NCBI GenBank assembly: GCA_963727625.1
Contig: CAVSHR010000008.1
Location: 160,001 to 224,000 of the forward strand
Origin: an uncultured delta proteobacterium
Lineage (GTDB): Bacteria > Desulfobacterota > Binatia > UBA9968
Direction: 5' to 3'
Length of the DNA: 64,000 nucleotides
Shown here: piece by piece, positions 27,885-59,797 of the stretch
Layout: each line of letters starts with the position of its first letter
Position numbering within the stretch: position 1 is the first letter of the stretch
The notes under the pieces: model-generated
What the model saw: the letters and a program-made list of their open reading frames with translations, nothing else
Told to the model about the DNA's origin: nothing
Database searches by the model: none
Program-made: the position numbers and the translations under genes

Positions 27885-27897
27885 AAGGTGAGTGGTC

Positions 27898-28952
27898 ATG
27901 GCCCCGCCGCCTCGCCTGCGCGGCCGCGGATCAGTAAGTAATCCGAAAAACCGCTTTGAATCAGTCGAGCGGGTGCCGGACCCGGCCTACGAGTTCGACC
28001 AGACCTCTGCGCCGCAGACACAGTTTTTTCCCGACCACAGCAAATCGATTATCGCTTACAACGAAAGTCCCGATGTCGGCTTCGATGCCAGCATCAACCC
28101 CTATCGAGGCTGTGAGCATGGCTGCGTCTATTGCTATGCGCGGCCGTCCCATGAATATCTCGGCTTTTCCGCCGGTCTGGACTTCGAGACCAAGATCATG
28201 GTCAAGGAGGACGCGCCTGAGCTATTGCGCCGCGAGCTCTCCGGGCGCGCCTGGAAACCGCAATGGGTCGCGCTGAGCGGCAATACCGACTGCTATCAGC
28301 CGGCGGAGAAGAAACGCAAACTGACGCGGCGTTGTCTGGAAGTCTTGCTCGAGTTTCGTAATCCCGTGGTCATCGTCACCAAGAATTTCCTGGTGACGCG
28401 CGATATCGATATCCTTCGGAGCTTGCGCGCTACGACTGCGTCGCGGTGACGATTTCTTTGACCACGCTCGATCACAAATTATCTTCTTTGCTCGAGCCGC
28501 GCGCGTCGCGACCGGCGCGGCGGCTGGCAGCGATCAAAACGCTTGCCGACGCGGGAGTCCCGGTGGGATACCTGCAAGCGCCGATGATTCCCGGTCTCAC
28601 GGATTCTGAGGCTCCGGCCATCGGACTGGCAGCGGCGCAGGCGGGAGCCACGTTTTCCGGCTACGTCGCCTTGCGCCTGCCTTTCGCGGTGAAAGTCTTG
28701 TTCGAGCAGTGGCTCGACCGGCACTACCCTGACAAGAAAACTAAAATTCTAAATCGCGTGCGGGAAATCCGCGGCGGCAAGCTCAACGATCCGAATTTCA
28801 AATCGCGCATGCGCGGCGAGGGTATTTATGCCGAGCAGATGGCAGAGCTGTTTCAATTGGCGCGCAAAAAATCGGGAATCACCGCGCGCTGGCCGAAACT
28901 GACGACCGAGCATTTTCACAGAGCCGGAGTGGATCAGCTGAATCTATTCTGA
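27898..28952 (+). pseudogene. PA0069-family radical SAM protein (SplB-related), split by a 1-nt frameshift near 28416 (possibly a sequencing error)
   Basis: SINPYRGCEHGCVYCYARP; adding one base gives ..DIL.ELARYDCVAVTISLTT, joining ORFs 27892-28449 and 28446-28952. Confidence 0.85.
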
Positions 28953-39650: not shown

Positions 39651-39879
39651 GAGCCGCTCCTTCAATTCATGCCGGTTTATGCTCGACGATTTATCACCCT
39701 TGTCAATGCACGGTCAAATCAACGCGGATCGCGCGGCGACGACAGTCCTTTCGCGTGGCTCGCGACCTTCCGCTTAGAATAAATCAATAAACTGCGCTAA
39801 CCGTAATCTTAGATAGTCCATCGATTGACGGCGAAAGGTCAAGATTGCAGCCGATGAACAGTATCTCACGGGTGTGGTC

Positions 39880-39908
39880 TTGACCCGGCGCGGTCGGATT
39901 TTTACAAT
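39880..39908 (+). promoter_or_regulatory. Sigma70 promoter of the TIR gene
   Basis: TTGACC-N17-TACAAT. Confidence 0.6.
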
Positions 39909-40030
39909 ACAAAGCGCGGCGCATTTCTTACAATGGCGACATGCAAATTCATTATTTGTTTTTCATCCCGAATTGATTTGCCCACAGCCGAGCTGGACCT
40001 CGTCGGGAGCAGCCGTGGGTCAAAAAGCAA

Positions 40031-41467
40031 ATGACGGACATCTTTTTAAGCTACGCTAACGAAGATCGCGATACTGCAGCGCGATTGGCGGCCCATCTCG
40101 AGTCGATCGGCTGGCGCGTCTGGTGGGATCGGCGTATTCCGGCGGGGCGGACCTGGCGCGTGATTTTGGAGAATGCGCTCACCGAGATGCGCTGCATGAT
40201 CGTGCTCTGGTCGAAACATTCGGTCGAGAGCCCTTGGGTTGCGGAAGAGGCCGAAGAAGCGCGGCGGCTCGGCAAGACGCTGGTGCCTGTGCTGATCGAG
40301 CGAGTCGAGCCGCCGATAGGATTTCGCGCCATACAGGCAGCCGATCTTTCCCATTGGGACGGTTCAGCCGACGATCCGACCGTTCAGATGCTCGTTACCG
40401 ACTTGAAGTCTTTGCTTGGCGCGCCGCGCGAACAGCCTCACGACCGGCGCGAATTTGTCGCGCCGCACTCCAAAGATTCGTGGCGCACAGAATGGTTGAC
40501 ACGCCATTGGTCGAAGCTTTCAGTGGGGGGAGCGGCGCTGCTAGTTATCTTTGCGCTCTGGCAGTATGGAGCGCTACTCAAACCCGACTCCGGTCCAGCG
40601 GTGACGGCAGTGAACGAGGAGCGCGCGGAAGCTACTCTGGCGCCGCAGTTAACCGGTGTGTCGTTGCACGGCTCGCGACAAATTCTCAAACCCGCGGAGA
40701 CTCTTAAACTCACCGTTACGGGAAAATATTCCGATGGCTCCGAGAGTGAAGTCAAGGACGGTATTGAGTGGTCGAGCAGCGACACTCGCGTCGCTGCTGT
40801 CGACGAAGACGGCGAGGTGCGAGCCCTGCAAAGCGGCACGACCCATATCGTGGCAAAAATCGGTGCGGTGGCGAGCTCCACATGGACGCTCGACGTCGAA
40901 GCGGTGAAACCGACCGTCAAAGCGGCGGCGCCGCAGCTGGTTGGCCTCAAAATCATCTCGAACAAAAATGAGCTCAGCGAAAATGAAAAAATCCGGTTGC
41001 GGGCAACCGGGCGATATTCGGACGACAGCGAGAAGGATGTCTCCAGCGAAATCACTTGGAAGAGTAGCAATCGCGCGGTCGCGTCGGTCAATGGCAGCGG
41101 AGAGCTGCAGGGCTTAAAGCCGGGAAATGTTGAAGTGGTGGCGCGAATGCAAAAACTGGCGAGCGCGCCGCGGACTTTCATGGTCAAGGAGCCGCCGGGT
41201 GGAGTAGCCCCACAAACGAAATCGCTGAAGGCCATACCGCTACCGGTTCAGCCAGCGGTGCTCACGGAACAAGCGAAAACCAAGATCGCGGACCGATTGA
41301 ATCGCGCTCAAAATTACCGCGAACAGGGAAATTACGCGGCCGCATTGGCTGAGCTGGAGCAGGCGAAAATCATCGACGGCACGAACGCGGAAATCCGTGA
41401 GGCCATCGAGCAAACCAAACGGGCGTGCAATGCGGAAAGGGCGCTCGGCAATAAAGTGACTTGTTAG
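40031..41467 (+). CDS. TIR domain - TM - two Big_2 Ig-like domains - TPR-like helical domain
   Basis: DIFLSY..ED..VWWD..IVLWS..SVES.WVAEE (TIR_2); TM GGAALLVIFALW; two TGxYSD.SE..V...WxSS...VA.V...G repeats; A..YREQGNYAAALAELEQA. Confidence 0.88.
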   Translation: MTDIFLSYANEDRDTAARLAAHLESIGWRVWWDRRIPAGRTWRVILENALTEMRCMIVLWSKHSVESPWVAEEAEEARRLGKTLVPVLIERVEPPIGFRAIQAADLSHWDGSADDPTVQMLVTDLKSLLGAPREQPHDRREFVAPHSKDSWRTEWLTRHWSKLSVGGAALLVIFALWQYGALLKPDSGPAVTAVNEERAEATLAPQLTGVSLHGSRQILKPAETLKLTVTGKYSDGSESEVKDGIEWSSSDTRVAAVDEDGEVRALQSGTTHIVAKIGAVASSTWTLDVEAVKPTVKAAAPQLVGLKIISNKNELSENEKIRLRATGRYSDDSEKDVSSEITWKSSNRAVASVNGSGELQGLKPGNVEVVARMQKLASAPRTFMVKEPPGGVAPQTKSLKAIPLPVQPAVLTEQAKTKIADRLNRAQNYREQGNYAAALAELEQAKIIDGTNAEIREAIEQTKRACNAERALGNKVTC

Positions 41468-41509: not shown

Positions 41510-42358
41510 CTAACGCCGCAGTTGACGGTCTCGCTCCGCGCGCTCGTCGCGGCGCGCGCGGTCATTTTCTTCTTCGAGTTTGTATCCGACTTCTTCCGCG
41601 TTTAAAATAATTTCGCCCCAATTCTTCGGCTGCGCCGCGAGCTGCTGCAGGGTCAGTTGAATCTGACTGCGGATATCTTGCCCCGGGTCCCAAAATTTTC
41701 CTTGCGGCGCATTTCTAGTAAAATCATCGAGCCAATCGCGCAATCCCGCTAAAGCCGTCGTGAGTTCCTTCCGACCTCGTGCTCGGCGCGCTTCGTTGGG
41801 TTGGTTGGACTTGCCGCCGTCAGCGCGCAGATGTTTGAGCTCGTTGATCAAAACGGCATCGGCGCCAGCGTTGCGCAGCTGATTTTCGGTTTCCTTAGTG
41901 AGATCAAAAGCGACGCCGCGCTGGCGCGCCAGGGTCGCGACGCGTTTGGGTTCGACGCCTTCTCGAAGCGCAAAAGTGACCTCCTGCAACTTGAAGGCGG
42001 CGGGCGCAGCCACCAACGGCATAGGACGCACCAGAGTCAGGCCCAGATACAATCGGGCAATGTAGTCGTCACTCAGATAGGAAAGAGCCTTTTCAAATGC
42101 TTGGCTGGCTTCGGCGAACCTGCCCGAATTATAGTGAGCGCGGCCGATGTAGGTCCAAATGTTTCGTTGTGGCAAGACGGAATCGGAAACGAAAGCGGGA
42201 TTGCTGCTGGCGACGCGCTGGAAGTAACCAAGTGCGTTGTCGGGCTCGCCTCGCAACAAAGCTTGCCGCCCGGTCGAGAATTCACTCTGCTGTCCGAATC
42301 CAGCGCAGGCGCATAGCAAAAGCAGAGCGACCCAGCATCGCATACGAGAAAATTTCAT
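41510..42358 (-). CDS. TPR-containing putative lipoprotein
   Basis: LLLLCAC lipobox-like signal; TPRs (WTYIGRAHYNSGRFAEASQAFEKAL, ARLYLGL); start 42358 or 42400. Confidence 0.75.
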   Translation of the reverse strand: MKFSRMRCWVALLLLCACAGFGQQSEFSTGRQALLRGEPDNALGYFQRVASSNPAFVSDSVLPQRNIWTYIGRAHYNSGRFAEASQAFEKALSYLSDDYIARLYLGLTLVRPMPLVAAPAAFKLQEVTFALREGVEPKRVATLARQRGVAFDLTKETENQLRNAGADAVLINELKHLRADGGKSNQPNEARRARGRKELTTALAGLRDWLDDFTRNAPQGKFWDPGQDIRSQIQLTLQQLAAQPKNWGEIILNAEEVGYKLEEENDRARRDERAERDRQLRR

Positions 42359-42567
42359 AGACAACCAAATTAGGATAGGTGTTGGCCGGTTAAAACTCAA
42401 GTGACAAGTCTTTGTATGCTCGACACAAGCGCATCTTGCTCGGGCAAAATGAACTGTCGGGGCGCTTATGTTTCCGCGCGCATGCGACTGCGGACGGGCT
42501 CCAATTTTTTTTGCGTTTGGTTGTGGGCTTCCCGGCTCTCTGTTAATGAAAGTGGAGCTTTTTCACA

Positions 42568-54985: not shown

Positions 54986-56224
54986 ATGAACGTTAAGACT
55001 CCGATTTACCTTGATAATCACGCGACTACGCAGGTCGACCCGAGGGTTTTGGAAGCCATGCTGCCCTACTTCACGGAAAAATTCGGTAACGCGGCGAGCA
55101 AAAGCCATGCGTTTGGTTGGGAGGCGGAAGCTTCCGTCGACAGGGCGCGGGAGCAGGTAGCGAAGCTTATTGGCGCCTCGTCGCCGCGGGAGATTGTTTT
55201 TACCAGTGGCGCGACCGAATCGGATAATCTCGCGATCAAGGGGGTCGCCGAAGCTTACCGTGACAAGGGCGATCACATCGTCACCTGCGTGACCGAGCAC
55301 AAAGCGGTTCTCGATAGTTGTAAGGTTCTGGAGAAGCATGGATTCCAAGTTACCTATTTGCCGGTTAGCGCTGATGGGGTCGTCGATATCGAGCGCTTAA
55401 AGACTGCGCTCACGGAGCAAACGATATTGATCTCGATTATGGCCGCCAATAACGAGATCGGTACGATTCAACCGGTGCAAGAAATCGGTCGCGTGGCCAA
55501 AGAGAGAGGGATTCTGTTTCACAGCGATGCGACGCAAGCGGTGGGCAAGGTTCCGATCAACGTCGAAGCAATCGGTATCGATCTGCTGTCGTTGACGGCG
55601 CACAAGATGTACGGCCCCAAAGGTGTCGGCGCACTTTACGTTCGTGCGACCAAGCCCCGGGTAAAAATTACTCCGCTCATCGACGGCGGCGGGCACGAGC
55701 GCGGTATGCGGTCTGGCACTCTCAACGTCGCCGGGGTCGTGGCGCTCGGCAAGGCTTGCGAGCTTTCGCAAAATGAAATGGGCGCCGAAGCTGAGCGTTT
55801 GACAGCTCTGCGCGAGCGGTTGAAACACGCGGTTCTCGATCAGCTCGAAGACGTCCGCGTCAATGGCGATGCGCTGCAGCGGTTGCCGGGCAACATGAAC
55901 TTGAGCTTTGCTTACGTGGAGGGCGAGTCGCTGATGATGGGGCTCAAAGAAATCGCCGTATCCAGCGGTTCGGCATGCACTTCGGCAAGCCTCGAGCCGT
56001 CCTATGTGCTCAAGGCGATCGGCTTGGAGGATGCCATGGCCCATGCCTCTATTCGTTTCGGCATCGGCCGCTTCAATACTGTGGATGAAATCGATTACAC
56101 GGTGCAACGGGTCGTCGAAGAAGTACAGCGTCTGAGAGAGATTTCTCAAGTTTATCGGGCGAAGAAGACCAAGCTACAGAAACGTCAGCAAGGCGAGGTG
56201 ACCAGTCAGGAAAAAGTTTCCTGA
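54986..56224 (+). CDS. iscS: Cysteine desulfurase, IscS type
   Basis: [46 protein letters not shown]. Confidence 0.93.
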
Positions 56225-56253
56225 CTGTTTCACACAAGGGGAGGAACAAAGTT

Positions 56254-56583
56254 ATGGCCATGGGAATCAGTCTCACCGATCGTGCCGCGGCGCGGATCAA
56301 GGAGCTGATTGTCGCCGATAGCCGGCAAGGTCAGGGATTGCGGGTTAAAGTGGTCGGCGGCGGTTGTTCGGGCCTTCAGTATAAGGTGGATTTCGACGCG
56401 CCCAAAGGGACCGATAAGGTGTTCGAGAAGGACGGCGCCAAAGTTTTGGTGGACATGAAGAGCCTGCTTTACCTGACGGGCACGGAGCTCGACTACAAAG
56501 ACGAGTTGATGCAGTCCGGCTTCGTCTTCCAGAATCCGAACGTGAAGAAAGCCTGCGGTTGCGGCGCTTCGTTCACGGTTTAA
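56254..56583 (+). CDS. iscA: A-type Fe-S carrier (IscA/SufA/ErpA family)
   Basis: GGGCSG, NPN..ACGCGASF. Confidence 0.9.
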   Translation: MAMGISLTDRAAARIKELIVADSRQGQGLRVKVVGGGCSGLQYKVDFDAPKGTDKVFEKDGAKVLVDMKSLLYLTGTELDYKDELMQSGFVFQNPNVKKACGCGASFTV

Positions 56584-56604
56584 AAATAGTGGGGAAGTAG
56601 AATC

Positions 56605-58065
56605 ATGAAAACAGCGACAAACACAGTGGAAGATCTTGCTCGTCGCGAGTACAAGTACGGTTTCGTCACCGACATTGATGCGGACACCGTTCCGCCAGGG
56701 TTGGACGAAGACGTCATTCGCCTGATCTCCGCAAAAAAAAATGAGCCGCAGTTCATGCTCGATTGGCGGCTGAAGGCTTATCGTCACTGGGCCAAGCTGG
56801 AAAAGACTCAAGCCGAGCCTAAGTGGGCGAAGGTGCATTATCCGCCTATCGATTATCAGGCAATTCGTTATTTTTCCGCGCCGAAATCGAAGACGGATGG
56901 TCCCAAAAGCCTAGACGAGGTCGATCCGGAGTTGCTCCAAATGTACGAGAAGCTGGGAATTCCTCTCAAAGAGCAGGAATCTCTGGCTGGCGTGGCCGTC
57001 GACGCGGTTTTCGACAGCGTCTCGGTGGCGACGACATTTAAGGGGAAGCTCGCCAAGCTCGGCATTATCTTTGGCTCGTTTTCCGAGGCGGTGCAAAATC
57101 ATCCCGACCTGGTGCAAAAGTACCTGGGCTCAGTGGTGCCTTACACCGACAATTTTTTCGCGTCGCTCAATTCCGCGGTGTTCAGCGACGGCTCGTTTTG
57201 TTTCATTCCGAAGGGAGTGCGCTGCCCGATGGAGCTGTCGACCTATTTCCGCATCAACGCCGCGGAAACCGGCCAATTCGAGCGCACGCTGATCGTCGCC
57301 GAAGAAGGCGCCACGGTAAGTTACCTTGAAGGCTGCACCGCACCCATGCGCGATAAAAACCAGTTGCACGCCGCGGTGGTGGAGCTGGTGGCCCACAGGG
57401 ACGCCCAGATCAAGTACTCCACGGTGCAAAATTGGTACCCCGGCGATGCCGAAGGCAAGGGCGGTATTTACAATTTCGTGACCAAGCGCGGCAAATGTCT
57501 GGGCGAGAGCTCGAAGATCTCCTGGACTCAGGTGGAAACCGGTTCGGCGATTACCTGGAAGTATCCGAGCTGTATCTTGCAGGGCGACGATTCGGTGGGC
57601 GAGTTTTATTCCGTGGCACTGACCAACAATTACCAGCAGGCCGATACCGGCACCAAGATGATCCATATCGGCAAGAACACCAAGAGTACGATCATCTCGA
57701 AGGGTATCTCGGCGGGCCACGGTCAGAACACCTACCGCGGCCTCGTTAAGATCATGAAGGGCGCCAGCGGCGCGCGGAACTATTCGCAGTGCGATTCGTT
57801 GTTATTGGGAGACAAGTGCGGCGCGCATACCTTTCCTTATTTGGAAGTTTTAAATAACGCGTCGCAGGTCGAGCACGAGGCCTCGACCTCCAAAATCGGC
57901 GAGGATCAGCTGTTTTATTGCAAGCAGCGCGGGCTCTCGACAGAGGACGCGGTCAATCTGATCGTCAACGGTTTCTGCAAGCAGGTATTTAAAGAGCTGC
58001 CGATGGAGTTTGCCGTGGAAGCACAGAAACTTCTCGGCGTAAGCCTGGAGGGCAGCGTCGGATAG
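56605..58065 (+). CDS. sufB: Fe-S cluster assembly scaffold SufB
   Basis: [50 protein letters not shown]. Confidence 0.97.
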
Positions 58066-58108
58066 GAATGGTTTCCATCCGCGACCGCGGACGAACAAGC
58101 AGGCAATT

Positions 58109-59335
58109 ATGTCGGACGAAATTTACTTCGATAACAACGCGACCACACGGGTGCTGCCCGAGGTCGCCGAAGCGATGATACCGTTCTACACGGAGCAGTA
58201 CGGCAATCCGTCGAGCATTCATCGTTTCGGCAGCCAGGTGGGCGAGAAAATCGCGCAGGCGAGGGCGCAGGTTGCCGCGCTGATCGGCGCCGCCGATCCG
58301 ATCGAAGTCATTTTCACGAGCAGCGGCACCGAAGGCGATAACGCCGCGATCCGCGGCATGCTCGAAGCGCGGCCGGACAAACGCCATATCGTCACCACTC
58401 AAGTCGAGCATCCAGCGGTGTTAGGTCTATGCCAGCATTTGGAGAAGAAAGGTTATCGTGTGAGCCGGTTGGGCGTCGACGCCGACGGCGCGTTGGATCT
58501 CGATGAACTGCGCGCTGCATTGACCGACGATACCGCGGTGGTGTCGATCATGTGGGCCAATAACGAAACCGGAGTAATTTTCCCGATCGAACAGATCGGC
58601 GCGATCGTTCGCTCCAAAGATATTCTATTTCATGTGGACGCCGTGCAAGCCGCTGGCAGGTTGCCGCTCGCCGTTAAAGACTTGCCGGTGGACCTGATGA
58701 CGATCTCGGGCCATAAATTTTACGCGCCCAAAGGGATCGGCGCGCTCTACGTGGGACGCGGCATTACTTTTCCACCTTTCATGATCGGCGGCCACCAGGA
58801 ACGCAACCGGCGCGCCGGAACGGAAAATGTCGCGGGCATCATAGGCATGGGTAAAGCGGCGGAGATCGCAGCTGGCCGGATAGCCGAAGATTCGGCGCGA
58901 GTCGGCCGGTTGCGCGATCTGCTCGAAACTTTGTTGCTGGAATCCTGTCCGGGCAGCCGGGTAAACGGCCGCGGGCAGCCGCGCTTGCCGAACACGTCGA
59001 ACATCAGTTTTCGCTATTTGGAAGGCGATTCGATTCTCGTGCTGCTGGACCAGCAGGACATCTGTGCTTCCACGGGTTCCGCCTGTACGGCGGGCTCTTC
59101 GGATCCCTCCCATGTGCTGCGGGCAATGAAGGTTCCGGCAGATTGGCTGCAGGGCGCGGTCCGTTTTAGCCTCGGCCATTTCAATACAGAAAAAGAAGTC
59201 CATTACGTGAACCAAAAGGTGCCGGCGATCGTCCAAAGGCTGCAAAAGCTTTCCGTCTTGGGCAAACTCGGCGATCGACAGGAGCTGCAATCCGAGCGTC
59301 ACACGGCGACCGGCGGCAGCGGGGCAAGGAGGTAG
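58109..59335 (+). CDS. nifS: Second group-I cysteine desulfurase, NifS type
   Basis: YFDNNATT, YGNPSS.H, MWANNETG, SGHKFYAPKG, STGSACTAGS..PSHVL. Confidence 0.85.
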   Translation: MSDEIYFDNNATTRVLPEVAEAMIPFYTEQYGNPSSIHRFGSQVGEKIAQARAQVAALIGAADPIEVIFTSSGTEGDNAAIRGMLEARPDKRHIVTTQVEHPAVLGLCQHLEKKGYRVSRLGVDADGALDLDELRAALTDDTAVVSIMWANNETGVIFPIEQIGAIVRSKDILFHVDAVQAAGRLPLAVKDLPVDLMTISGHKFYAPKGIGALYVGRGITFPPFMIGGHQERNRRAGTENVAGIIGMGKAAEIAAGRIAEDSARVGRLRDLLETLLLESCPGSRVNGRGQPRLPNTSNISFRYLEGDSILVLLDQQDICASTGSACTAGSSDPSHVLRAMKVPADWLQGAVRFSLGHFNTEKEVHYVNQKVPAIVQRLQKLSVLGKLGDRQELQSERHTATGGSGARR

Positions 59336-59341
59336 AAACAA

Positions 59342-59797
59342 ATGGGGCTCATGCAGATACCACGGCGCGTCGACTATGGCTTACGTGCGGTGATTTATCT
59401 CTCGGACCAGCTGCCGGGAAAATGTTGCTCCATCGGTGAGATCGCCAAGCATCAGGGGATGCCGAAAAAGTTCTTGGAAAAAATTATTCAAAATCTGGTT
59501 CAGCGCGGCTTGATCAAGTCCAAGCGTGGCGCTTCGGGAGGTTACATGTTGGCGCGCCCGGCCGACGCCATCTCGTTTTGCGACGTGATCGAGGCGATCG
59601 AAGGGCCGATCTCGGTCAATGCGTGTTTGGACCATGCCTTGGGCTGTGATCAGATTCCGCGCTGTACGATGATAGGCGTCTGGAACGAGGTGCAGCGTGG
59701 CGTCACCGAGGTGCTCAGCCGCACGACCATTGCGGCCCTGCGCCAGCCGGCCTGCAAGGAATTCATTGGTGTTTCTTCTCTTTCGAGTGCGGCTTAA
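59342..59797 (+). CDS. Rrf2 family transcriptional regulator (IscR-like)
   Basis: YGLRA, FLEKI, S.RG..GGY.LA, three Cys C-X6-C-X5-C. Confidence 0.9.
   Translation: MGLMQIPRRVDYGLRAVIYLSDQLPGKCCSIGEIAKHQGMPKKFLEKIIQNLVQRGLIKSKRGASGGYMLARPADAISFCDVIEAIEGPISVNACLDHALGCDQIPRCTMIGVWNEVQRGVTEVLSRTTIAALRQPACKEFIGVSSLSSAA

Follow-up and report, generated by a model that had tools for sequence, protein, structure and literature searches.

A candidate TIR-domain envelope receptor in an uncultured Binatia bacterium, with a periplasmic module that also occurs on other heads

The known bacterial Toll/interleukin-1 receptor (TIR) proteins are soluble anti-phage enzymes that answer to cytoplasmic cues, and a TIR domain wired to a periplasmic input through a single transmembrane (TM) helix would differ from them. 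Activation of the bacterial TIR enzymes is expected to proceed by oligomerisation, and TIR NADases, Hanks-type kinases and caspases are all activated by induced proximity; the TIR domains of animal receptors act mainly as adaptors. Receptor kinases of the PknB type consist of a kinase, a TM helix and extracellular repeats, and in the RcsF-IgaA and NlpE-CpxA relays a lipoprotein reports the state of the envelope to an inner-membrane protein that signals cytoplasmically. Here, we analyze a gene for a 478-residue protein on a stretch of 64,000 nucleotides from an uncultured delta proteobacterium of soil (Desulfobacterota; Binatia; UBA9968; assembly GCA_963727625.1, contig CAVSHR010000008.1, positions 160,001 to 224,000 of the forward strand; hereafter the window), which is predicted to join a TIR domain, one TM helix, two Ig-like domains and a helical tip, and which lies beside the gene of a putative lipoprotein partner. 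We give an even chance to the reading that this protein is a single-pass inner-membrane receptor, in which a lipoprotein-linked periplasmic input switches on a TIR NADase by induced proximity.

Among the literature found, the nearest published ideas are the lectin-fold 'antigen sensors', namely C-type-lectin domains that are diversified by diversity-generating retroelements (DGRs) and joined to TIR, CHAT or Pkinase domains (bioRxiv 10.1101/2023.09.22.558884), and the lectin-fold FGS sensors of conflict systems (PMC8195603). The ZorAB part of Zorya is described as an inner-membrane complex with a cell-wall-binding periplasmic part and as a proposed sensor of envelope perturbation by phages (PMC11890865). 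Neither a TIR-TM-Big_2 protein, nor the helical Cys domain, nor a pair of TIR-TM protein and OmpA-like lipoprotein was found described in the literature searched, the supplementary files of which lay outside the search and might list such architectures.

Domain architecture and the shared periplasmic module

The reading frame opens with ATG; in its product, an N-terminal TIR_2 domain is followed by a single TM helix, a pair of Big_2 domains and, at the C-terminus, a domain of three helices in which two cysteines are conserved (Table 1). A first-pass annotation, made from the sequence before any database search, had proposed much the same order, and an AlphaFold2 model built on an alignment of 58 relatives (mean predicted local distance difference test, pLDDT, 77.7) bears out its domains, with a TIR fold at residues 1-130, a low-confidence linker, a helix at the TM position (160-180), a second linker, beta-sandwiches at 207-289 and 303-386, a third linker and three C-terminal helices. 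The 58 relatives were chosen from the best 120 of 434 proteins returned at E <= 0.001 by a word-indexed search with the full protein; these 120 are 440-540 residues long and 49-100% identical to the query, which 118 of them cover to 100%. PF26182 is among the precomputed domains listed for most relatives, and Foldseek with the whole model returned Ig-repeat proteins only. The TIR domain is the best-conserved part (mean pairwise identity among the 58 relatives 78.5%), followed by the helical tip (67.7%), the Ig domains (54.5% and 57.6%), the TM helix (38.5%) and the linkers (18-38%). Hydropathy gives a single Kyte-Doolittle peak (1.84 at residues 165-183), which coincides with the modelled helix and agrees with the one TM helix annotated before. 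Three K/R residues flank this segment on its N-terminal and one on its C-terminal side, and an N-terminal signal peptide is absent; because of this excess on the N-side and the lack of a signal peptide, the TIR domain is placed in the cytoplasm, and everything past about residue 183 would be periplasmic.

The match to TIR_2 (PF13676) spans residues 4-112 (E 5.2e-26, 92 bits against a cut-off of 28), in keeping with the domain originally assigned to the N-terminus. The WVxxE segment that had been noted there is indeed kept as W69-V70-A71-E72-E73, and W69, V70, E72 and E73 are invariant in 58/58 aligned relatives. In the alignment, E73 is the counterpart of the W-x-x-x-E Glu in the solved bacterial TIRs 4c7m, 7uxr, 7uwg, 3h16 and 4lzp, a residue that we take to be the catalytic one of NADase-type TIRs. 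With this Glu in the alpha-C region, the domain shows the sequence features expected of a catalytically competent TIR. When the protein was compared with the defence-related models of PADLOC and NCBIfam, generic TIR matches far under the family cut-offs were all that was returned: the ThsB models of PADLOC match only at E 5e-4 to 7e-3, which does not place the protein in Thoeris ThsB, ThcB4 of NCBIfam reaches 27.7 bits against a cut-off of 220, and the SAVED_TIR model covers the TIR part only (residues 3-79), which does not make the protein a CBASS or Pycsar TIR effector.

On the other side of the membrane, Big_2 (PF02368) matches in 2 stretches (E 2.9e-18, 66 bits against a cut-off of 22.8), which are modelled as the two sandwiches and confirm the tandem repeats annotated from about 40640 and 40928 (residues 204 and 300). 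The repeats align to one another at 33 of 87 positions, and the top structural match is LigA (E 1.1e-17). The helices of the tip lie at residues 413-431, 435-448 and 453-471 (pLDDT about 90). The TPR-like helix pair that had been proposed there holds in so far as the tip is helical and its nearest clusters by language-model features are TPR proteins (0.91-0.94, at the low count of 130-148 of 256 features shared among the matches listed, 143 for the first), but the helices are three, and the TPR_2 match at 424-451 (E 0.015, 15.8 bits) stays below the cut-off of 27; the tip would be TPR-like at most. The two terminal Cys of the first annotation, C466 and C478, are each filled in 57/58 relatives, and because they are the only Cys columns past the TM helix, a periplasmic Cys466-Cys478 disulfide probably locks the tip.

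The same outer part occurs behind other cytoplasmic domains. Within the bacterial family, a profile built on the tail detects the helical Cys domain in 13 of 23 genera and in 41 of 90 genomes (counts that take in two unpublished genomes, G005 and G359, on which the conclusions do not depend), and confinement of the protein family to one genus was discarded on this result. Among 18 of the 50 listed places, picked by hand for other genera and long open reading frames (ORFs) and hence non-random, the head domain is TIR_2 in 8, Pkinase (Ser/Thr kinase) in 9 and CHAT (caspase-like) in 1. A cluster in a sister genome adds three Pkinase proteins of 532, 746 and 603 residues, in which the TM helix is followed by 1, 2 and 0 Big_2 domains, respectively, and then by the helical Cys tail; the 746-residue protein is 33% identical to residues 158-473 of the window's receptor (E 7e-40), and the convergent neighbour of its gene is 34% identical to the lipoprotein described below (E 2e-48). 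All 21 proteins have one strong hydrophobic segment ahead of the module, and 19 of them have exactly two Cys past this segment, in an R-A-C-x-A-E...L-G...C tail. Surveyed across relatives, as the first-pass annotation had proposed, the TM/Big_2/helical-Cys module is thus found on TIR, Pkinase and CHAT heads, and because of its fusion to Pkinase or CHAT in related genomes it is, on this evidence, a receptor input unit with exchangeable outputs. When residues 395-478 served as query in a word-indexed search, the 60 proteins obtained were TIR-headed relatives and five shorter proteins without a listed TIR (at least one of the five is marked partial by its source); none of the 60 is kinase- or CHAT-headed, such proteins having come only from the genome profile search.

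The number of Ig domains is not fixed, as one library representative (P0132) has a single Ig domain and another (P0158) joins two TIRs to the same helical Cys tail and lacks Ig domains altogether. With between zero and two Ig domains per protein, against one constant and better-conserved helical Cys domain, the Ig domains probably serve as a stalk whose length varies and not as the sensing element, and the constant helical tip together with the TPR lipoprotein is the likelier sensing unit. 

Two side observations concern these genomes. In the sister genome G003 (C3:119739-121174), the TIR-coding part of the ortholog contains three TGA stops and one TAA stop, its periplasmic part is an intact ORF of 343 residues, and the three kinase-headed paralogs are carried as well. 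Beside the kinase cluster, a gene (L121:1243-2781, minus strand) encodes a 512-residue protein without a Pfam match, in which a TM segment is followed first by a stretch (V.P.RVA...RGV.FD....E.QLR.AGAD) that resembles by eye an insert of the lipoprotein at residues of about 138-195, and next by a long Glu/Lys/Arg-rich repeat.

The neighbouring lipoprotein, the genomic setting and the wider TIR subfamily

The gene that converges on the receptor gene from downstream is, judged by its leader, that of a lipoprotein, because the lipobox residue Cys32 is invariant in 20/20 orthologs and stands behind a hydrophobic stretch and A/G/S residues (alignment read). Its true start is probably at 42358, since Met15 is invariant among the orthologs. 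Sorting of lipoproteins follows the residue after the lipid-modified Cys in other organisms, and because this residue is Ala here, the protein probably has its anchor in the outer membrane. An all-helical model of it (pLDDT 89.2, predicted template modelling score 0.83) finds only generic TPR matches in Foldseek, BamD included (E about 1e-3). Shorter paralogs exist elsewhere in the genome, none of them beside the other TIR genes.

Binding between the two proteins was modelled with residues 200-478 of the receptor and residues 33-296 of the lipoprotein. The interface score (ipSAE) is 0.60, the median of 0.55, 0.69 and 0.60, against 0.00 for the best of three controls, at least 85% of the contacts agree between the runs, and the partner pLDDT is at least 85. 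Among solved complexes, 58 of 80 reach the mark applied, as do 2 of 110 pairs that were mismatched; this calibration is only rough for a prediction made with its own alignments, and at an ipSAE of 0.60 or under only 7 of the 80 solved complexes passed, as did both mismatches. The prediction lends weak support to binding; because it was added to the prior evidence from gene neighbourhood, our estimate rises modestly, so that we regard binding of receptor and lipoprotein as slightly better than an even bet.

The neighbourhood evidence comes from 26 of 80 kept loci that match beyond the TIR domain. The TPR lipoprotein gene is convergent and directly downstream in 24 of them, the 2 misses ending at a contig edge, an FAD-binding oxidoreductase gene lies upstream in 22, and the MFS, DUF309 and Mfd genes come next in 20. 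Across these loci, identity is lower for the receptor (39-66%) and for the TPR protein (45-72%) than for the products of the FAD (81-90%) and Mfd (78-90%) genes, which marks the first two as the faster-evolving. Outside this set, a full-length lipoprotein homolog is convergent beside 7 of the 8 hand-picked TIR proteins (the eighth is short of flank), 4 of the 9 Pkinase-headed proteins and the one CHAT protein. Four genomes of the same genus (93-98% complete) have neither the receptor nor a full-length lipoprotein ortholog; they keep the MoOx/FAD and MFS/DUF309/Mfd flanks, and metabolic genes fill the slot between them, so the slot between FAD and MFS is variable within the genus. By eye, the contents of this slot (L111-L114) were named as UbiD-like, enoyl-CoA-hydratase-like, AMP-ligase-like and amidohydrolase-like proteins and a solute-binding protein, and one of the four genomes has a small PIN-like ORF there (L111:7840-8313, minus strand). 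Full-length matches at E <= 1e-60 were found in none of 300 other genomes across the phylum, of which only one is from the same family.

The window holds housekeeping genes (GlyRS, Lgt, Nth, Mla/Pqi-like, Mfd, SurA-like, PdxA, UvrA, Isc/Suf and LpxL-like). PADLOC on its 59 ORFs detected no defence system and returned only generic matches of the ABC-ATPase, helicase, cysteine-desulfurase and Nth type; neither a ThsA-like match, in line with the earlier statement that no Thoeris-type effector is nearby, nor a cyclase match was among them. Membership in Thoeris, CBASS or Pycsar was rejected on the sub-cut-off TIR scores together with the lack of ThsA-like and cyclase matches among the window ORFs. 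The close TIR subfamily has no match in the phage collection and a best match of 35% identity in the plasmid collection, and a mobile-element origin was discarded on these grounds. To judge from this setting, the receptor gene has been inherited vertically within a block of housekeeping genes and is not a mobile defence gene.

As for expression, a promoter scan gave TTGACC-17-TACAAT at 39880-39908 (10/12 consensus matches), in a region with 3 promoter-like sites versus 1.3 +/- 1.2 in shuffles, and this scanned site is weak evidence for a promoter. A TTACAA-N16-TAAAAT-like element is common to most of 9 orthologous upstream regions (alignment read by eye) and corresponds to window positions 39907-39912 and 39929-39934, a short way downstream from the site that the scan gave. 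The putative sigma70 promoter of the gene itself, as first annotated, is backed by the shared element, but the scan is weak by itself. The block ATTTT..ATTACAA..ATTTG.TAAAAT, kept in most of the 9 orthologs, lies about 90-120 nucleotides ahead of the start codon (window 39800-40030), a distance that may leave room for a conserved leader. 

Two further observations concern other parts of the window. A PA0069-family radical SAM protein is split over 27892-28446 and 28446-28949 (plus strand; profile positions 1-172 and 180-348), which may reflect a frameshift or a faulty assembly, or may be a genuine split. A region for Fe-S clusters (54986-59794, plus strand) encodes IscS-like and NifS-like cysteine desulfurases, IscA, SufB and an Rrf2 regulator, and the two desulfurases give strong but generic DndA/SspA matches in PADLOC.

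Table 1. Positions of the receptor gene, its domains, the convergent lipoprotein gene and the upstream element in the window
Feature	Position	Strand	Basis
Coding sequence of the 478-residue TIR-TM-Big_2-Big_2-helical Cys protein (P0001)	40031..41467	+	ORF, Pfam, relatives, model
TIR_2 domain, residues 1-130, putatively cytoplasmic	40031..40420	+	Pfam, alignment, model; cytoplasmic side inferred
Glu73 codon, invariant	40247..40249	+	aligned with WxxxE Glu of solved bacterial TIRs
Predicted single TM helix, residues about 160-182; linkers on both sides poorly conserved and of low confidence	40508..40576	+	hydropathy, model
Big_2 Ig-like domain 1, residues 206-290	40646..40900	+	Pfam, model, structural matches
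Big_2 Ig-like domain 2, residues 302-388	40934..41194	+	Pfam, model, structural matches
C-terminal helical Cys domain, residues 412-478; three helices and RACNAE..LG...C tail, Cys466, Cys478	41264..41464	+	alignment, model
Convergent TPR lipoprotein gene, putative partner	41510..42400	-	Pfam, synteny, alignment, model
Sigma-70-like element ATACAA, 16-nucleotide spacer, TACAAT	39907..39934	+	orthologous upstream alignment and consensus match

With the TIR domain alone as query, 38,786 library representatives are matched at E <= 0.001 and 958 at E <= 1e-30. Of the 150 nearest, 149 (P0121-P0269; P0077 was left out) were scanned for hydrophobicity, and a strong hydrophobic segment is present in 109 (one in 97, more in 12) and absent from 40, many of which look like fragments. 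Pfam partners besides TIR_2 in 146 of the 149 (three giants were dropped) are Big_2 in 8, FGE-sulfatase in 5, OmpA in 2 and PDZ in 2, with single cases of Trypsin_2, PAN, a methyltransferase with DUF4062, NTP_transf_3 and TPR_12, and roughly 20 of the 146 have tandem TIRs (counted by eye); the partners located past the hydrophobic segment are Big_2, OmpA, FGE-sulfatase, PDZ, PAN and trypsin domains. The genome to which the window belongs contains 7 more TIR_2 matches (loci L002-L008, on contigs C2 and C4 of G000), which comprise a TIR-TM-PDZ protein of 333 residues, TIR-TM-FGE-sulfatase proteins of 393 and 441 residues, the latter with its TIR split over two frames (two matches) and perhaps frameshifted, a pair of TIR-TM proteins whose tails are unassigned and a soluble TIR of 168 residues; the PDZ gene and one FGE-sulfatase gene are about 4 kb apart.

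Over residues 1-132, identity to the closest TIRs of Betaproteobacteria (L052-L073) is 65-69% (49-69% over all 48 loci of betaproteobacterial type, L046-L092 and L097); these TIRs head proteins of about 300 residues with a TM helix, a Pro-rich stretch and a short Cys..Cys tail. Directly downstream on the same strand, 42 of the 48 loci have a gene for an OmpA-like lipoprotein with a TPR-like stretch (e.g., L046:8001-10153; L073:8001-10180); of the remainder, one is divergent, four are short of flank and one is without an OmpA-like gene. The 570-residue P0141 fuses the TIR-TM part to the mature part of the OmpA-like lipoprotein (53% identity over 363 residues). The pairs and this fusion show this TIR subfamily coupled to envelope-binding proteins of the periplasm in a second phylum as well. 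The TPR lipoprotein of Binatia has no detectable similarity to the OmpA-like one of Betaproteobacteria (best E 0.38).

Proposed mechanism and rival explanations

In the proposed mechanism, the helical tip would contact the outer-membrane lipoprotein across the periplasm, with the Ig domains as a stalk. A change in this contact, brought about by envelope damage, by a phage or another envelope-acting agent or by an altered distance between the membranes, would alter the oligomeric state of the receptor, and the altered state would turn on the TIR domain by induced proximity. The output would be NAD+ cleavage, resulting either in NAD+ depletion with growth arrest or in a nucleotide signal. Because all three head types are switched on by induced proximity, one and the same input could drive a TIR, a kinase or a CHAT domain. 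Envelope surveillance with a growth-arrest or abortive outcome is the likeliest role, and this is also the weakest step of the proposal. Of the transmembrane receptor suggested by the first-pass annotation, the division into cytoplasmic TIR output and periplasmic input stands and is backed by module swapping, but its Ig domains as sensors do not fit their number of 0-2 beside a constant tip, and its stand-alone gene gives way to one that is linked to a lipoprotein.

Several points weigh against this receptor. The complex prediction was only a weak pass, and its interface is not reported; the tip, with a TPR_2 match under the Pfam gathering score, falls short of an assignment to TPR; and five of the nine kinase-headed proteins have no adjoining lipoprotein homolog (one locus is short of flank, two of the proteins are without Big_2 and two lie beside other TPR proteins). 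The head ratio of 8:9:1 is not a frequency, because the 18 places were hand-chosen, neighbourhoods inside one bacterial family are not independent of each other, and the co-absence of receptor and lipoprotein may go back to a single deletion in one clade. The high conservation of the TIR domain and its fixed chromosomal position are unlike those of fast-turnover defence genes, and they also fit a non-catalytic scaffold. Lastly, no RNA run was listed in the search of sequencing runs, which turned up soil and estuary metagenomes with small DNA shares (0.06-0.14).

A stand-alone anti-phage abortive-infection protein would share with the proposed receptor the motif Glu kept in its TIR domain. Its Ig domains would directly bind a phage part in the periplasm and cluster the protein, whereupon the TIR would deplete NAD+ with no lipoprotein needed; Big_2 is a common binding module, its best solved matches here being the host-binding repeats of Leptospira LigA and LigB, and the Ig domains and linkers evolve faster, as does the whole protein when set against the FAD gene. 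We nevertheless consider such a protein unlikely, given that the helical tip is constant and better conserved at an Ig number of 0-2, that the lipoprotein gene is present in 24/26 loci and absent together with the receptor in 4 genomes, that the gene sits in a conserved housekeeping block and no defence island, and that the close TIR subfamily is not in the phage collection (best plasmid match 35%). That the TIR domain is instead a non-catalytic adaptor, which on the pattern of animal TLR/IL-1R signalling would use TIR-TIR contacts to recruit further TIR proteins, or a conserved partner in the cytoplasm, as relays of the signal, seems quite unlikely, as the invariant WxxxE Glu and the acidic helix around it are expected of an enzyme, the other outputs of the module, kinase and CHAT, are enzymes, and no candidate adaptor is encoded nearby. 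For an adaptor speak the conservation of the TIR domain (78.5% in the family, 65-69% to the closest betaproteobacterial TIRs), which suits a protein interface, and the 7 further TIR_2 matches in the genome, including the soluble TIR of 168 residues.

Lastly, stalk and tip could link the inner membrane to the lipoprotein or the cell wall as a structural tether or housekeeping envelope protein with a non-signalling cytoplasmic domain. The synteny with housekeeping and envelope genes (Mla/Pqi-like, SurA-like and LpxL-like in the window) and the coupling of the closest TIR relatives to OmpA-like cell-wall-binding proteins would be compatible with this, yet a tether has no need of three different enzyme-type heads and an invariant catalytic-type motif, and 4 related genomes do without the gene pair, which makes a purely structural role very unlikely.

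It is possible, if doubtful, that the proposed receptor stands for an undescribed class of trans-envelope receptors, in which an Ig stalk, a disulfide-locked tip and a cognate outer-membrane TPR lipoprotein would be combined with interchangeable TIR, kinase or caspase-like outputs to watch over the envelope, and of which the betaproteobacterial TIR-TM/OmpA pairs would form a second branch. If true, receptor-type transmembrane signalling with death and immunity domains would extend beyond animals and plants to bacteria, as a prokaryotic counterpart to the logic of TLR/IL-1R, receptor kinases and death receptors. It would also provide a testable case of an envelope event turned into NAD+ cleavage, and give a role to a large unannotated set of TIR-TM proteins (the 958 representative clusters that match the TIR domain at E <= 1e-30). 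Cultured relatives, such as a Hydrogenophaga pseudoflava strain, carry the pair of TIR-TM protein and OmpA-like lipoprotein, hence the question is open to experiment.

Comparison with known systems

The first-pass annotation had called the protein 'inverted IL-1-receptor-like', and the likeness holds for the topology. Like the animal interleukin-1 receptor (IL-1R) and Toll-like receptors (TLRs), it would be a single-pass protein with a cytoplasmic TIR domain and repeats on the outside (Ig in IL-1R), and a second outside protein may take part in both cases, the accessory protein in IL-1R and putatively the lipoprotein here. However, the TIR domain is N-terminal, the outer domains are Big_2 and not I-set Ig, so that the protein does not belong to the IL-1R family, and the enzyme-type Glu is kept, unlike in the TIRs of animal receptors. 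The likeness to IL-1R and TLRs is best taken as an analogy of topology, without evidence for common descent of the architecture. With the bacterial TIR NADases and signal synthases (Thoeris ThsB, AbTir, TcpB/BtpA, PdTIR and the CBASS/Pycsar effectors), the protein has the TIR_2 fold and the WxxxE Glu in common, whereas it has no ThsA, cyclase, SAVED or STING partner, would be membrane-anchored with a periplasmic input and is chromosomally fixed in place of being island-borne.

Of the published antigen sensors, the C-type-lectin and FGE-sulfatase ones carry the same trio of effectors on a putative sensor, and some of them are predicted to be periplasmic; they are described there as hypervariable and often accompanied by STAND or MoxR NTPases and a retroelement, whereas the present locus has a conserved Big_2/helical module and a lipoprotein, with no NTPase and no DGR (bioRxiv 10.1101/2023.09.22.558884; PMC8195603). 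The layout of ZorAB resembles the betaproteobacterial pair of TIR-TM protein and OmpA-like lipoprotein, but Zorya, a motor driven by ions and equipped with nuclease effectors, is not homologous to the receptor (PMC11890865). The locus is likewise similar to outer-membrane lipoprotein relays (PMC7553776) in combining a lipoprotein with a signalling inner-membrane protein, although their partnership is putative here. Unlike RcsF-IgaA and NlpE-CpxA, to which it has no sequence relation, it would use a TIR, kinase or CHAT output in place of a phosphorelay. The PknB-type kinases differ in having PASTA domains in the place of Big_2 and the helical Cys domain, and the head of the present family may be a TIR or CHAT domain; with them it has in common an N-terminal cytoplasmic enzyme, one TM helix and extracytoplasmic repeats, and its kinase-headed kin carry the very same outer module.

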